NCBI GenBank assembly: GCA_013138735.1
Contig: WTCE01000107.1
Coordinates: 1,771-65,770, forward strand
DNA from: Crocinitomix sp.
GTDB lineage: Bacteria; Bacteroidota; Bacteroidia; Flavobacteriales_D; Crocinitomicaceae
DNA length: 64,000 nt
Direction of reading: 5' to 3'
Part shown: positions 3,541 to 61,457 of the stretch, piece by piece
Layout: the number at the start of each line of letters is the position of its first letter
How positions within the stretch are numbered: the stretch's first letter is position 1
Position numbers and translations under genes: made by a program
Notes under the pieces: model-generated
Database searches by the model: none
Told to the model about the DNA's origin: nothing
What the model saw: only the letters and a program-made list of their open reading frames with translations

Positions 3541-4025
3541 ACGAGTATTGTTAGATCTTTTAACTGTTTTTTAATTTTATTTCGGGCTCTAAATAAATAG
3601 ACTTTTACTTGAGCTTCACTTAGCTCGAGTATTTCGCCTATTTCCTGATACGTATAACCTTCTAAATCGCGCAGAAGAATAATTGATTTTTGAAGTGGCG
3701 GAAGTTTAGCTAAACTTTTTTCTATAATTTCCTTCATTTCAAAATCCCGAGAGTGGCACACAGCAGTGTCAGATGATACCGTATTTGCTTGGTATGTAAT
3801 CCGACTATTTTTCTTGATGAGGTTTATTAATGCATTGTGTGCACAAGTAAACAACCAAGATTTTGCCTTCTCAGTAACAATTTTTTTTCTGTTTTTCCAT
3901 AATTTTTCAAAAACATCTTGAACAATATCGTTTGCGTCTTCGGTATTTTTTAAATACTTCAAAGAGTAGCCATACAACCTTCCGGAGTATTCTTTAACAG
4001 CGATATTGTATTCTTTTCTCGTCAA
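3537..4025 (-). CDS. ECF-type RNA polymerase sigma factor
   Basis: Region 2 (DANDIVQDVFEKLW...KSWLF) and region 4 (LRDLEGYTYQEIGEILELSEAQVKVYLFRAR); TTG start. Confidence 0.93.
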   Translation of the reverse strand: MTRKEYNIAVKEYSGRLYGYSLKYLKNTEDANDIVQDVFEKLWKNRKKIVTEKAKSWLFTCAHNALINLIKKNSRITYQANTVSSDTAVCHSRDFEMKEIIEKSLAKLPPLQKSIILLRDLEGYTYQEIGEILELSEAQVKVYLFRARNKIKKQLKDLTILV

Positions 4026-19494: not shown

Positions 19495-21607
19495 ATGGAA
19501 GTCCATAGCGCTTTTTATCTGCCTTTTTGTAGGTTATTCTGCATTGACTCAGGAAAAGGACATTCCATTTGATAAACGCCTTTTTGAATCTCAAAAATTA
19601 GAATTTGAAGAAGCTGCCAAGGAAATTAAATTAGGAGACTTCTACTTTTTTGATGGAAGGGATGAATTTTTGATGGTCGCCTTATCCCATTTTGAAAAAG
19701 CTCAAAAATTCAATCCATACTCTTCTATTCTGAATTATAAAATAGGGATTTGTTACTTGTATAGCTCAAATAAGTCTGAGAGTTTGCACTATTTAGAATT
19801 CGCGCATAAGGTGAATCCAACATTAGACATTGATTTAAAATTCTACCTGGCGCAAGCTTATCAATTGGACGGGAATTTTGAAACAGCTATTCAATATTAT
19901 AAGCTTTATCAAAACTTGATTCCAGCAAATGATAAAAGACAACAACGCTATGTTGCAAAGAAAATATCTGAATCACGAACAGGAATTGAATTAATGGAAT
20001 CTCCAATTCGTGTTTGGGTTGACAATTTAGGCGATAGTATTAACTCTGAATACTCTGAATTTTCACCAGTTATTTCAGCCGACAATCGTGTGCTCTTTTA
20101 CACCTCCCGAAGACCAGATTCGCAAGGGCAAAAAACAGATCGTTTGGGTAAATATTATGAAGACATTTATTATTCAATGCGCAATTCTGAAGAGGAATGG
20201 GCAGCTGCAGAAAACATTGGTGCTCCAGTAAATACAGAATCGCATGACGCAACTGTAGGTGTCGCTGCTGATGGTAAAAGTATCTTAACCTACCAAGGTT
20301 TAAGTTCTAAAAACGGCGATATTTTAATTACAAAACAAAATGAAGATGGTTCTTGGGAAACACCTAAAAGTTTAGGCGTTGGCATTAATTCAAAGCACCA
20401 TGAATCAAGCGCAACATTATCATTTGATGAAAAAACACTCTTTTTCGTTTCAGATCAACCCGGCGGTTATGGACAACATGACATTTATGTTTCCACATGG
20501 AATGAAAAAAAGCAAGAATGGGGAAAAGCAAAAAATTTAGGCCCTGAAATTAACACTGATTTCGAAGAGATGGGTGTATTCTTTCACGCTGATTCTAAAA
20601 CCCTTTATTTCTCGTCAGACGGTCATAAAAACATGGGCGGTTTAGATGTATTTAAAAGTGTTTATGACGCCGAGTCAAAAGAATGGTCAGAACCTGAAAA
20701 CATTGGCTACCCAATTAACACACCTGATGATGACATTTATTTTGTAGTTACGGGTAATAACCGTTACGCCTACTATTCCTCTAACCGCCCTGGTGGTTTT
20801 GGCGAAAAGGATATTTATAAAATCACGTTTTTAGGCCCTAAGAAAATCCCGGCTTTACCAACATCAACTAAAGAACAGGCTATTGTTGAAAATGAAGCCC
20901 AACAATTTCAAACATTAGCAAAAGCTGAACCAAAATTCTTATTGACAGGACGAATCATAGATGGTGAAACGGGAATAGGCATGCCCGGACAATTATTCAT
21001 TATTAACGCGCAAACCAATGAGCGAGTTTACGCCATTAGAACACATCCAGATGGTTCCTATTCTGCGGTGCTTTCCCCTGGTGAACAGTACGCTTTAACA
21101 GCTGCAGGGAAATATTTTTCAATTGGTTCACAAATCTTAACGTCAGACGAATCGTTTACTAATCAAGAAAAAACACTGGACTTTGTACTTTATCCACCAA
21201 CAACAGATGGAAGCTCTGGGAATTCATTCGCTTTAAGAAATATCTACTTTGGCTTTGATCAAACCAATTTAGATTATACGGCTTTTGGTTCTCAAGCGCA
21301 AGTTGAATTGGATTTATTGGCAGATTTATTAGAGAAAAACCCTACTATAATAATTGAATTGGGCGGACATACGGATCGTCGTGGTGCGAGTAATTACAAT
21401 GAGGAACTTTCAAATAACCGTGCCTTTATAGCCAAACAATATTTGGTAGATAAAGGAATTGATGAAAAACGAATTAAGATGGTGGGTTATGGCGAAACGC
21501 AGCCTGAAGTAGCCTGGGAAGTAATTAAAGATTTGAAAGATAAAAAGGCGCGAGAAGAAGCGCATCAACGCAATCGTAGAACTGTAATAACAATTCTATC
21601 TCAATAA
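19487..21607 (+). CDS. TPR + PD40 + OmpA_C protein (PorE-like architecture)
   Basis: TPR; PD40 repeats (LYFSSDGHKNMGGLDVF); OmpA motifs IYFGFD, GGHTDRRG, LSNNRA, NRRT. Confidence 0.9.
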   Translation: MNKWKSIALFICLFVGYSALTQEKDIPFDKRLFESQKLEFEEAAKEIKLGDFYFFDGRDEFLMVALSHFEKAQKFNPYSSILNYKIGICYLYSSNKSESLHYLEFAHKVNPTLDIDLKFYLAQAYQLDGNFETAIQYYKLYQNLIPANDKRQQRYVAKKISESRTGIELMESPIRVWVDNLGDSINSEYSEFSPVISADNRVLFYTSRRPDSQGQKTDRLGKYYEDIYYSMRNSEEEWAAAENIGAPVNTESHDATVGVAADGKSILTYQGLSSKNGDILITKQNEDGSWETPKSLGVGINSKHHESSATLSFDEKTLFFVSDQPGGYGQHDIYVSTWNEKKQEWGKAKNLGPEINTDFEEMGVFFHADSKTLYFSSDGHKNMGGLDVFKSVYDAESKEWSEPENIGYPINTPDDDIYFVVTGNNRYAYYSSNRPGGFGEKDIYKITFLGPKKIPALPTSTKEQAIVENEAQQFQTLAKAEPKFLLTGRIIDGETGIGMPGQLFIINAQTNERVYAIRTHPDGSYSAVLSPGEQYALTAAGKYFSIGSQILTSDESFTNQEKTLDFVLYPPTTDGSSGNSFALRNIYFGFDQTNLDYTAFGSQAQVELDLLADLLEKNPTIIIELGGHTDRRGASNYNEELSNNRAFIAKQYLVDKGIDEKRIKMVGYGETQPEVAWEVIKDLKDKKAREEAHQRNRRTVITILSQ

Positions 21608-58348: not shown

Positions 58349-58381
58349 TATACAAACGCAGTACTTTAAAAAAGACGCAAA
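58349..58381 (-). promoter_or_regulatory. ECF promoter copy upstream of the Cys-rich peptide: TTTGCGTC-N15-CGTT
   Basis: Same boxes and spacing as the copy upstream of the sigma gene. Confidence 0.75.
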
Positions 58382-58396
58382 CAAAATAATCTTAGG

Positions 58397-58930
58397 TTAA
58401 CAATCACAGTCTTTTTCATCTGCATCCAGTACATTCCCATAAGTGTCTGTTTGGATGGCACAACACGCAACAAATAAGTTTTTCAATTTTTCCTTTGCTC
58501 GTTGCGACCGTGATTTAACGGCTGAATAGCCTAAGTTTAAACTAGCGGCATATTCTTTTTGACTCATTGAGCCAAACGCTGTTTTATTGAGTAGGTCTTG
58601 ATCCTTTTCAGACAGTTCTTTTACGAATGAAGTCAAACATTTGCTTAAATCCTGAGTGGATTCAGTTGATTCTTCTGGAAATTTTTCTTCGATCGTTTCT
58701 TGATAAACAACCCATTTCTTTTTTCGATAAGAATCAATGATTGTATTGCGTGTGATGCGATAAATCCAGCTAGCCAAATTGGTACCTTCCGTTAATCCTT
58801 TTAGGTTCATATGAATCTTAATGAACACTTCTTGTAAAAGGTCCTCGGCCAATTCATGATCGTTTATTCGGGACTTTATAAACCCAAACAATTCTCCTTT
58901 AAAATCATTCCAAACATGTTCTGTTGTCAT
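58397..58930 (-). CDS. sigZ: SigZ-family ECF sigma factor with a Cys-rich C-terminal tail
   Basis: AEDLLQEVFIK...SWIYRITRNTIIDSYRK; SQKEYA...YSAVKSRSQRAKEKLK..FVACC...YGN...CDC. Confidence 0.85.
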   Translation of the reverse strand: MTTEHVWNDFKGELFGFIKSRINDHELAEDLLQEVFIKIHMNLKGLTEGTNLASWIYRITRNTIIDSYRKKKWVVYQETIEEKFPEESTESTQDLSKCLTSFVKELSEKDQDLLNKTAFGSMSQKEYAASLNLGYSAVKSRSQRAKEKLKNLFVACCAIQTDTYGNVLDADEKDCDC

Positions 58931-58940
58931 TGTTTTCTTT

Positions 58941-58973
58941 TATTAGACGTACTATCTTTAAAAAGACGCAAAA
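58941..58973 (-). promoter_or_regulatory. ECF autoregulatory promoter TTTGCGTC-N15-CGTC upstream of sigZ
   Basis: Minus strand TTTTGCGTCTTTTTAAAGATAGTACGTCTAATA. Confidence 0.75.
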
Positions 58974-59000
58974 ATTAGCGCAAATCTTTATCTTCGTATT

Positions 59001-61457
59001 ATGCAAATTACTCAATCTATAGCAAATGCATTAATCCGGTCAATGTGTCTTGTGGTTTTTTGCTGTTCAGGGTTTGTATATGGTCAGGAAGAGGAATTGC
59101 TTGAATTTCCCGTAGAAAGTGCACCCAAAAAAGGTGAAACCATCATTACGAGAGTTGATGGAGCGTATGCCTTAAAAAGAGATGACTCAACCTTTGTTGT
59201 TGGTGATTATAATAGGATTGAAAAACTTAGTAATCGCGCGTTTCTTGTAAAAACAGAAGGTAAATGCGGTCTAATTAATGAAGATGGCCTTTTAATTATT
59301 CCCCTTAAATACAGTTCTATTGCTTATATAAATAAGAAGCATTCAAATGATCTTCTCATAAAAAAGGGAAATAAATATGGTTTGATGAATGATTCAGGGG
59401 ATTTACTATTGCCCACCAAATATTGTGAGATTTACTATGGGAACTCGTTTAGTAAACTCTATCTAGTTAGAGATAAAAAGGGGAGGTTGCAACTATTAAT
59501 GGGTGCAAAGCCTGAACTATTAACAGGAATAGACAAATTAACTTTTTTCAAAGACGGCGCGCTAATTGAAAAAGCAGGAAAATTTGGTTTCATTCATCAA
59601 GGAACACTTACAATTCAACCTGAATATGATGGAATTGAAGTTGAAATGAGCACAAAAAGTGCAACGCATTTAGCAAACGACAGCTATTATAAAAGCCTTA
59701 CTCAAAATGCCATTCATGCTGTTGTAGTCGAAAAAGATGGAAAAAAGGAGCTTTACAAAGTTAACGGGGGAAATGTTTTTGATACCGACTTAGACGAAAT
59801 AAAATTCGATAACCTTAGAAAAGTATACACAGTAAAACGTGGAGACAAATGGGGGGCTTACATCCCAATTTATGATACGAAAATTGACCTGATTTATGAT
59901 CGTGTTTACTTGTTTGGAATGGATCGTCTCTCACCTATCAAAGATGGCAAACAAGGTGTAATAGATTATTCGGGTAAGACTATAATTCCATGCGCGTATA
60001 GCTCTGTTCAAGAACAATTAACCGGTGATTTCATAGTGAAAAACGGCGGTAAATCTGGCCTCATCAGCAAATCTGGAGAAGCCATTTTTCCTGTTGAATA
60101 TGATAAAATTGAAAAAATCTTTTCTAACCGAAAGCTTTATAACCACTACCATGTTGCCCGTAATGGACTTGTAGGCATCATCATGCCCGGTGAGATAATT
60201 GTCCCTATTGCATTTAAAACTATTCTAGAAAAGGCCGATTATTTTATCGTAGAAAAGGCCGGATTATTTGGAATCTATAATTTTGAGGGACTAGAAATAC
60301 TCGCTCCGATTTACGATAAGGTATTTGAGAGCAGAACGAATAAAAGTAACATAATTATTACTAGAAAAGGGAAGGAATTAGCTCTTGTCAATCAATCTAA
60401 AAACCCCATACTATTAGATCATTTAAAAACAATTCGATACATCAACAATAGCTATAATTTAAACAACTCCGCATCCGAAAATAAGACGACAGCTTTTTTA
60501 GGCGTACAAAGTGAAAATGGAAAATGGGGGGTTTTTGAAGAGCTGAAGCCTAAGTTGGTCGTCCCGATCATTTATGATGAAATAATTCAAAGGTTAGACT
60601 TAGAAAAAAGCACTTATTTCATTGTAATGCAGGACAATAAAATGGGTGTAATTAATTCAAAAAATGAAATTCTAATCCCAATTGAATACCAAAGCCTCGA
60701 CTTCGATAATGTATCTGCTCAAACAATAACTGAACCTTTCGAAGTTAATATTGTTGCGAAAAAAAATGGTAAATACGGTTTGATCGATTTAGAGAATAAT
60801 ACTATGATTCCTTTTAAATATCATCACCTTGCAAAAATAAGTTTTGATGACATTTATAAGGCCAAAACCAAAACTACTTATCGGGTGATTAATAGCAATA
60901 ATGAAAAGATTTTTGAGACTGAGTTCGATAATATTGGAATTTTCGAAAAAGAAACTGCACTCACTTTTAAGGCTGGAAAAATGCGTGTCATTAATCAAAG
61001 CGGCACTTATATAACGGACGCTAAACCTATGACATACCATCAAGGTTATCGCACTTTTGAAGCGCTTAAAATTGATCTTATTAATGCTTTGAATAGTAAA
61101 AGTAATGCCCAACTTTCTGATTTTGCACATAAAATAACACCGAGTAAGCATATGCTCTATCTTTATTCTAAATCCTCACATACCAAAGCTTATTTAGAAT
61201 ATTCGTCCCCTAAAAAAATTGGTAAGCGTTATTATGAAGTGCTTTTAGAAATTAAAGGCGCGTGGAACAGTGGTTCATTTGATCATAAAAAGTTGACGAA
61301 AGTTGAGGATTACACCTATTTCTCTGGCAAGTTTTATTCAAATTCACTAAAAATATATGAGGATTATGGCAGTCGAGAATTAGGATGGATCTTAAGTGAT
61401 GCTGTCCGTTTAGATGGCTTTTGGGTAAGCACTTTCTTTTTGAAGCACCGCTTTTAA
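59001..61457 (+). CDS. WG-repeat-containing exported protein
   Basis: Repeated K.GKYG.I...G..IIP..Y units. Confidence 0.85.
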   Translation: MQITQSIANALIRSMCLVVFCCSGFVYGQEEELLEFPVESAPKKGETIITRVDGAYALKRDDSTFVVGDYNRIEKLSNRAFLVKTEGKCGLINEDGLLIIPLKYSSIAYINKKHSNDLLIKKGNKYGLMNDSGDLLLPTKYCEIYYGNSFSKLYLVRDKKGRLQLLMGAKPELLTGIDKLTFFKDGALIEKAGKFGFIHQGTLTIQPEYDGIEVEMSTKSATHLANDSYYKSLTQNAIHAVVVEKDGKKELYKVNGGNVFDTDLDEIKFDNLRKVYTVKRGDKWGAYIPIYDTKIDLIYDRVYLFGMDRLSPIKDGKQGVIDYSGKTIIPCAYSSVQEQLTGDFIVKNGGKSGLISKSGEAIFPVEYDKIEKIFSNRKLYNHYHVARNGLVGIIMPGEIIVPIAFKTILEKADYFIVEKAGLFGIYNFEGLEILAPIYDKVFESRTNKSNIIITRKGKELALVNQSKNPILLDHLKTIRYINNSYNLNNSASENKTTAFLGVQSENGKWGVFEELKPKLVVPIIYDEIIQRLDLEKSTYFIVMQDNKMGVINSKNEILIPIEYQSLDFDNVSAQTITEPFEVNIVAKKNGKYGLIDLENNTMIPFKYHHLAKISFDDIYKAKTKTTYRVINSNNEKIFETEFDNIGIFEKETALTFKAGKMRVINQSGTYITDAKPMTYHQGYRTFEALKIDLINALNSKSNAQLSDFAHKITPSKHMLYLYSKSSHTKAYLEYSSPKKIGKRYYEVLLEIKGAWNSGSFDHKKLTKVEDYTYFSGKFYSNSLKIYEDYGSRELGWILSDAVRLDGFWVSTFFLKHRF

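Follow-up and report, generated by a model that had tools for sequence, protein, structure and literature searches.

A SigZ-type sigma factor gene and a Cys-rich micro-peptide gene of Crocinitomix sp. are preceded by matching predicted promoters

The locus described here lies in a 64,000-nucleotide (nt) stretch of Crocinitomix sp. DNA (contig WTCE01000107.1, positions 1,771 to 65,770), referred to below as the window. It carries a gene for a SigZ-type extracytoplasmic function (ECF) sigma factor and a very short gene for a Cys-rich peptide, each preceded by a copy of the same promoter-like box. The order on the minus strand is box, sigma gene, box, peptide gene, terminator. The features are as follows.

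58973-58941, minus strand: P1, predicted SigZ-type promoter of the sigma gene, sequence TTTTGCGTCTTTTTAAAGATAGTACGTCTAATA
58930-58397, minus strand: SigZ-type ECF sigma factor gene (ECF238-like), 177 amino acids (aa), assigned by domain and family profile matches
58382-58349, minus strand: P2, second predicted SigZ-type promoter, before the peptide gene, sequence GTTTGCGTCTTTTTTAAAGTACTGCGTTTGTATA
58349-58326, minus strand: imperfect dyad AAGTGACA-N8-TATCACTT, starting 6 nt past the -10 element of P2
58312-58229, minus strand: unannotated 27-codon gene encoding MKNCNCTCTCDENNNCTCTCETTNSCC
58222-58185, minus strand: intrinsic terminator GAGAGGGA...UCCCUCUU followed by UUUU, found by folding

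In P1, TGCGTC (58970-58965) is part of a -35-like element, TTTGCGTCTTTTT, and a -10-like CGTC is located at 58949-58946, giving the layout TTTGCGTCTTTTT-N10-CGTC. From the end of the box to the ATG of the sigma gene (58930) there are 15 nt, and a leader of about 8-9 nt is predicted. P2 starts 14 nt past the sigma stop codon and has TGCGTC at 58379-58374 and CGTT at 58358-58355 in the layout TTTGCGTCTTTTT-N10-CGTT, with 42 nt between the end of the box and the peptide ATG (58312). Both boxes have TTTGCGTCTTTTT in common, and the spacer between GCGTC and CGT is exactly 15 nt in each. Matching GCGTC-N15-CGT(C/T) boxes before sigZ and before the Cys-rich peptide gene had been described in a first-pass annotation of this DNA, and all of its strings were recovered on the minus strand where it had placed them. 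The sigma ATG is separated by 70 nt (58931-59000) from a divergent gene for an 818-aa WG-repeat protein (59001-61457, plus strand), so that P1 occupies much of the shared divergent control region.

The frequency of the boxes was compared with chance expectation. For the pattern TGCGTC-N15-CGTY, the window has two matches where 0.11 would be expected, and both strands of the 6.84 Mb assembly (13.7 M positions) together have ten. P1 and P2 are two of these ten matches, 591 nt from each other on one strand and both directly upstream of a gene start. A looser pattern gave 21 matches genome-wide and, besides P1 and P2, almost all of them are inside long open reading frames (ORFs) and lack the T-tract. 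A weight matrix was then trained on 72 boxes from other genomes (consensus tttatTTTGCGTCTTTTTtaAA...CGTCTaTA). Three features that the search did not require, a T ahead of GCGTC, the T-tract and a T following CGTC, are each seen in 65-71 of these 72 boxes. P2 and P1 score 33.0 and 32.5 bits with this matrix, the next best of the 13.7 million genome positions scores 18.1, and a matrix with a 16-nt spacer finds no site above 20 of a possible 43.7 bits in the whole genome. Thus, the computational regulon of this genome consists of exactly P1 and P2, and a chance origin of the pair is ruled out by the window count, the genome count and the matrix scores. The two-gene regulon proposed in the first-pass annotation holds to this extent for this genome; across the family, the regulon includes more than two genes and is related to arsenic, as described below. 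One loose TGCGTC-N15-CGTT match was seen outside the window (G000, contig C147, about 20811-20835), antisense within an ArsP-like permease gene, in its 5' part. Its matrix score is poor, and it was taken as a chance match and rejected as a further regulon member.

A homologue of the sigma gene was found in 10 of 41 related genomes. G002, G005, G009, G010, G017, G019 and G026 share the two genes and the two boxes in the order seen in the window, and at these orthologous loci the box-to-ATG distances are constant while the spacer sequences vary. The pair of boxes was found in all Crocinitomicaceae genomes in which the peptide gene follows the sigma gene. P1 is placed at the same distance from the ATG in G002, G005, G009 and G010 and at distant loci. 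Matches to the strict pattern TGCGTCYTTTT-N10-11-CGTY number exactly two per genome in seven genomes and one in G026, and every one of them lies at the sigma locus; each of the 31 genomes without the sigma gene has zero or one stray match. In two more distant carriers, the Cys-rich ORF is upstream of the sigma gene; G037 has the variant box TTTGCGTCTTTTT...CAGTCTATA and G018 a degenerate box, TGTATCTTTTT...GGTCTA. Recent duplication of one promoter was ruled out as the source of the pair, since in other taxa the P1 and P2 spacers differ at fixed motif positions. About 119 extra nt are found between the sigma stop codon and P2 in G002 (L002/L011) relative to the window.

The sigma protein matches Sigma70_r2 (PF04542, 8.3e-14) and Sigma70_r4_2 (PF08281, 1.4e-06), the domain composition of an ECF (group 4) sigma-70 factor. 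The SigZ models TIGR02959 and NF007215 are by far its best family matches and align over the full length, with scores just under their cut-offs (167.8 bits against 168.65, and 183.5 against 212, respectively). The ECF238 family includes B. subtilis SigZ and M. xanthus CorE2, and is characterized by a Cys-rich C-terminal extension of about 20 aa and the lack of an anti-sigma factor (PMC7826278). The cysteines of the window sigma are C98, C156, C157, C175 and C177, and its C-terminal sequence, CCAIQTDTYGNVLDADEKDCDC, has such an extension in the form CC156-157 ... C175xC177. The Cys pattern is kept in relatives, all 78 of which have CC within the last 45 aa. No anti-sigma domain was detected in the flanking ORFs (the WG-repeat protein and a 326-aa protein of unknown type), and the neighbours are not conserved across lineages. 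The protein appears to belong to a known kind, the anti-sigma-free, Cys-bearing ECF sigma factors, here with a predicted metallothionein-like target. A strict CorE-like (ECF44) label was rejected, as the CxC motif of the linker is not present. A predicted ECF238 promoter motif is reportedly contained in the Casas-Pastor 2021 supplement; the CorE2 paper gives no promoter consensus.

Relatives of the sigma factor were searched in one genome per species with a four-sequence sigma alignment as query, and 80 loci were obtained. At least one strict box is present near the sigma gene at 63 of the 80 loci; among these 63, the box precedes both sigma and peptide genes at 28, the peptide gene alone at 7 and the sigma gene alone at 9. 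At most Bacteroidota loci a small Cys-rich ORF of 19-80 aa follows the sigma gene, with a second box before it. Boxes at the sigma locus were also found in Chloroflexia, Anaerolineales, Paenibacillus, Planctomycetota and Limisphaerales, and thus in Chloroflexota, Bacillota, Planctomycetota and Verrucomicrobiota. As at other autoregulated ECF promoters, both the gene for the sigma and its presumptive targets have the family motif upstream. At loci devoid of the peptide, the gene behind the box encodes an arsenite methyltransferase (NF008823, 329 and 364 bits), an ArsP_1 permease or a Cys-rich protein of 83-105 aa. When ten distant genomes were searched whole, the strict box was nearly confined to the sigma locus. 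The extra strict boxes in these genomes precede genes for PatB C-S lyase and for a flavoprotein weakly resembling ArsO, which could be real targets or chance matches.

A metagenome scan was seeded by the DNA box alone, TTTGCGTCYTTTT-N10-11-CGTCTA, and yielded at least 120 loci; the counts that follow are among the matches listed. A SigZ-like sigma is encoded within the fetched DNA at 93 of 120 loci, and at 50 of the 56 loci of 5 kb or more. At least three Cys are present in the last 32 residues of 80 of the 97 SigZ-like sigma ORFs. The 84 ORFs of at least 60 aa directly behind the box were clustered by BLAST. The largest cluster is ArsM with 37 members (36 match NF008823), and the other clusters are sigma (12), DUF2703 (7), ArsP_1 (5), glyoxalase-fold (5) and DUF6428 (2); small Cys-rich ORFs are seen behind the box as well. 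The box-seeded and the sigma-seeded results together indicate that the box and the SigZ family imply each other and that the cargo of the family is mostly arsenic-related. Among the papers searched, none connects arsM with an ECF sigma.

A gene for a yrpG-like aldo-keto reductase in B. inaquosorum and B. spizizenii has TTGCGTCTGCTTTACGTTTG..TCGTC (TGCGTC-N16-CGTC) 20-66 nt ahead of it, on the opposite strand to sigZ, and sigZ itself has no box. A review names yrpG and gsiB as the only genes suggested to be activated by sigma-Z, and records that sigma-Z overexpression raises yrpG and that sigZ is not autoregulated (PMC4105308). If the box is the SigZ promoter, its presence before yrpG and its absence before sigZ fit both the reported yrpG activation and the absent autoregulation. 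A short CSCC frame (MKQLLNQLNCSCCKK...) was seen between the box and the yrpG-like start, opposite sigZ, in both species (L071, L083, about 2430-2480); its frame agrees with that of yrpG in one species but not in the other.

The proposal that this sigma factor directly drives its own gene and the peptide gene is thereby supported by the recurrence of the boxes in relatives and across phyla, by the metagenome scan and by the Bacillus yrpG box, and initiation at P1 and P2 would be sigma-dependent, with start sites just downstream of the -10-like elements. It is very improbable that the boxes serve another factor, be it the Bacteroidota housekeeping sigma (-33 TTTG, -7 TAnnTTTG) or some unlinked transcription factor acting on a CGTC direct repeat. 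Such an assignment could draw on the TTTG with which the box starts, on the two CGTC sequences about 20 nt apart and on G010, where the boxes persist beside a sigma pseudogene. In P1 and P2, however, TAnnTTTG is missing at the right distance, and the box is kept outside the phylum; a housekeeping Bacteroidota promoter was rejected on these two grounds. The box has an ECF-like layout and accompanies a SigZ-like sigma in phyla with different housekeeping promoters, and the yrpG gene reported to respond to sigma-Z overexpression (PMC4105308) is one that bears it.

The peptide encoded by the 27-codon gene has 9 Cys in 27 residues (33%), arranged in CxC repeats, and contains no aromatic residue and no His. 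This composition is that of an operationally defined metallothionein (small, about 30% Cys in CxC or CC, no aromatics). The exact sequence is absent from a collection of 15 billion proteins, and no Pfam or NCBIfam model matches it. The peptide is identical in five Crocinitomix species, and the eight DNA sites that vary among them are all synonymous third positions. Thus, the ORF is a translated gene under purifying selection.

A Cys-rich partner is tightly coupled to the sigma across lineages in either gene order, and within the genus the peptide is invariant at a sigma identity of 77-84%; this would suit a peptide that is mainly a sigma regulator, a micro anti-sigma or a metallochaperone that competes with the sigma Cys tail for ligand or hands ligand to it. 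Such a role is considered unlikely, as the peptides range from 19 to 105 aa with divergent sequences that have only Cys density in common, and many SigZ loci have ArsM in place of the peptide. Least probable of all is that the small Cys-rich ORF with its own promoter encodes the precursor of a ribosomally synthesized and post-translationally modified peptide (RiPP), exported after modification, whose production the promoter pair would control. The peptide has no apparent division into leader and core, the flanking WG-repeat and 326-aa proteins match no maturation, export or immunity family, and the neighbours vary by lineage; a RiPP precursor was rejected for want of conserved maturation genes.

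A dyad in the peptide leader had also been claimed in the first-pass annotation. It is indeed located at 58349-58326, with 7 of 8 positions complementary, and its local fold is weak (-5.0 kcal/mol, z -2.4). Many peptide leaders elsewhere have a stem-loop of 7-11 bp that begins 4-6 nt past CGTC and whose sequence is lineage-specific, with arms such as AGGTTATA/TATAACCT, AGGGTGA/TCACCTT and AGTGACA/TATCACT. A MAFFT alignment of whole leaders (A3) set the Crocinitomix 5' arm out of register; a trimmed leader set gave a 13-sequence alignment (A4), from which a covariance model was built. In A4, whose seeds were chosen for folding, the helix is 93.4% paired and 5 of 7 pairs are changed on both sides, the compensatory pattern of a conserved RNA stem-loop. 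The covariation score of A4 is 0.511 against 0.270 for shuffles, none of 500 shuffles being as high, and controls with slid partners are at most 55% paired. A 32-sequence alignment (A5) that came out of the search with this model, and that is biased towards structure by being model-fitted, is 84.7% paired with frequent G.U pairs, which favour an RNA helix over a protein-bound DNA dyad. When 508 kb were searched with the A4 covariance model, only peptide leaders and one ArsM leader were matched. The matches include sequences outside the training set and those of Crocinitomix relatives of the window (L003-L005); unlike these, the window's own leader gave no match at E <=1 in this search.

By comparison with these leaders, the window dyad is predicted to be the local version of this covarying and conserved stem-loop, with which the peptide mRNA would begin. 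The usual ECF promoter geometry would put the start site on the first bases of the helix, and this suggests that the stem-loop is a 5'-terminal mRNA stabiliser, of which the ompA leader is an example in bacteria. The likeness lies in a short helix at the predicted 5' extreme of a small mRNA and in the A-rich, unstructured segment between this helix and the start codon. The difference is that the 5' position is taken here from promoter geometry alone, and that the local copy is weak (-5 kcal/mol).

The hairpin after the peptide gene folds with -18.3 kcal/mol (z -5.6; none of 200 shuffled sequences folded as well) and is conserved in the genus. A simple consensus scan for promoters and terminators found no terminator; the strong hairpin seen by folding has an internal loop in its stem. 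There is no terminator between the sigma and peptide genes, which therefore also form one operon, and the hairpin at 58222-58185 is predicted to end the transcripts of both promoters.

We consider it probable (about 0.78) that the locus is a self-contained module, with P1 and P2 as cognate boxes of an autoregulated, metal(loid)-sensing sigma, a peptide that binds the inducer, and a terminator. Both boxes would be promoters of the encoded sigma, consisting of a -35-like TTTGCGTC(T/C)TTTT, a GCGTC-CGTC spacer of 15-16 nt and a -10-like CGTCTA. A basal level of sigma would be made first. On binding of a thiol-seeking ligand to C98, CC156-157 and C175xC177, the sigma would become able to use P1 and P2. 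P1 would provide positive autoregulation and amplify the sigma and, by read-through, the peptide, as P1 transcripts would run into the peptide gene in the absence of a terminator between the two genes. P2 would add peptide-only transcripts that start at or next to the stem-loop, which probably stabilises this short mRNA, and the transcripts from P1 and P2 would both end at the terminator. The peptide, with its 33% Cys, would then bind the inducer and act as a sponge, leading to detoxification and negative feedback. By analogy with characterised relatives, the sigma is most likely switched on directly by the thiol-seeking ligand. The inducer is most likely a trivalent arsenical or another soft metal(loid), since the same promoter elsewhere mainly drives ArsM, ArsP-type, DUF2703, glyoxalase-type and DUF6428 genes.

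The same promoters and sigma could also answer to thiol-oxidative or electrophile stress, with the sigma cysteines as a redox switch and the peptide as a sacrificial thiol buffer. Cys clusters can sense oxidation as well as metals, and redox or electrophile genes are found behind the box, namely yrpG in Bacillus and genes for thioredoxin-reductase-like, PatB C-S lyase and glyoxalase-fold proteins. Arsenite methyltransferases nevertheless dominate among the targets, ArsP, DUF2703 and DUF6428 are also families of ars clusters, and the characterised relatives CorE and CorE2 answer to metals (PMC6851896), so that a redox signal is held to be improbable.

Several observations weigh against the metal(loid)-sensing module. 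A CxC motif within the linker joining sigma-2 to sigma-4 is a requirement in CorE and CorE2 (PMC8999054, PMC6851896); the window sigma has a single cysteine, Cys98, in its place, and the linker CxC is found in just 2 of 78 relatives. P2 has CGTT, whereas 69 of the 72 family boxes have CGTC. The restriction of all seven two-match genomes to the ten sigma carriers (Fisher 5e-6) is partly trivial as a correlation, the boxes being part of the module itself. In a genome scan for boxes, of the kind suggested in the first-pass annotation for the surroundings of metal or arsenic resistance genes, the ArsP-like and methyltransferase genes of this genome were found to carry no box, so that no arsenic link is visible locally. 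The B. subtilis evidence is second-hand, from a review. In G010, an uncultured Crocinitomix metagenome-assembled genome (L005/L012, 1501-2031), the sigma reading frame is interrupted by two stops, a TAG at codon 73 and a TAA near codon 141, and both boxes and the 27-codon peptide gene are intact. Either the sigma was inactivated recently in G010 or the peptide is not strictly dependent on this sigma.

The proposed module was compared with known systems. In the cyanobacterial SmtB-SmtA pair, a sensor switches on a Cys-rich metal-binding protein that lowers the free inducer. RicR-MymT of Mycobacterium tuberculosis similarly combines a cytoplasmic sensor with a small Cys-rich metal-binding protein in negative feedback (PMC10141476). 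The sensor, the small Cys-rich protein and the negative feedback are the features proposed here also. SmtB and RicR are, however, repressors released from DNA by metal, whereas the sensor here would be a positive one, the sigma subunit itself, and the window peptide is unrelated in sequence to SmtA and MymT.

CorE and CorE2 of M. xanthus (former ECF44, now in or next to ECF238) likewise are ECF sigma factors with a Cys-rich C-terminal domain and no anti-sigma. This domain senses metal directly, autoregulation is partial and the detoxification regulon is small (PMC6851896, PMC8999054); CorE2 is activated by Cd/Zn through its Cys-rich C-terminal extension (PMC7826278, PMC8999054, PMC6851896). 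The window sigma differs in having the single linker Cys and not the essential CxC. The targets of CorE and CorE2 are P1B ATPases, a multicopper oxidase and a cation diffusion facilitator, against a Cys-rich micro-peptide here and ars-type genes elsewhere, and the promoter motif is defined here by comparison and not by experiment. The analogy to the window sigma would thus be a functional one only. B. subtilis SigZ (ECF238 subgroup 9) is the best family match, with the same box before a yrpG-like gene in B. inaquosorum and B. spizizenii and no anti-sigma; it differs in that Bacillus sigZ has no box of its own, is reported not to be autoregulated and has no adjacent Cys-rich peptide gene. The cargo found behind the box in other bacteria (arsM, arsP, glyoxalase-type, DUF2703 and DUF6428 genes) resembles that of ArsR-controlled ars operons, with the difference that the box genes are predicted to be under a dedicated ECF sigma promoter and not under the ArsR repressor.

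A wider reading is offered tentatively, at somewhat below an even chance: that SigZ-type sigma factors (ex-ECF24, now ECF238) are widespread, anti-sigma-free, one-protein sensors of arsenicals or metal(loid)s with a near-invariant promoter and tiny regulons, and that the CxC-repeat peptides are a new sponge family. If so, such sensors would be present in Bacteroidota, Chloroflexota, Bacillota, Planctomycetota, Verrucomicrobiota and others, using the promoter TTTGCGTC(T/C)TTTT-N10-11-CGTCTA for a regulon made up of the sigma and ArsM, ArsP, DUF2703 or glyoxalase-type genes or Cys-rich micro-peptides. The unannotated peptides would form a bacterial family of arsenic or soft-metal sponges, and B. 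subtilis sigma-Z, long without a function and still listed as such (PMC4105308), would gain a testable one. The results provide a promoter definition, at the level of sequence, for a large and poorly understood ECF family that includes sigma-Z, and link the SigZ family with genes for arsenic or soft-metal detoxification and with very small Cys-rich genes overlooked by gene callers. A search for the box can reveal unannotated micro-genes, and it can predict whether a given ars-type gene is controlled by a sigma or by ArsR. With one sigma, two promoters of about 30 nt, no anti-sigma and two strong sites per genome, the module is also a candidate orthogonal, ligand-responsive switch or biosensor.

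Further arrangements were noted at individual loci. In Marinifilum and Labilibaculum (L061, L062, L065, L066, L070, L081 and L087) the box is located about 500 nt upstream of the sigma gene and precedes a gene for an 83-85 aa Cys protein (MNNECCGSQ...CACKGLGPCQC...CGCGEGCGC), followed by the sigma gene in the same orientation; this protein has no Pfam or NCBIfam match. In Marinifilum breve (L093, 1631-2356, plus strand) a gene for a Cys-rich membrane protein that resembles MerTP (63 bits with NF033556, less than the cut-off) is divergent from the PatB C-S lyase gene that carries a box. One metagenome contig (L156) has three boxes in a row on one strand, at 3589, 4201 and 5122, and these precede genes for a SigZ-like sigma, for ArsM and for a protein of 299 aa that has a signal-like segment at its N terminus and no assigned family, respectively.

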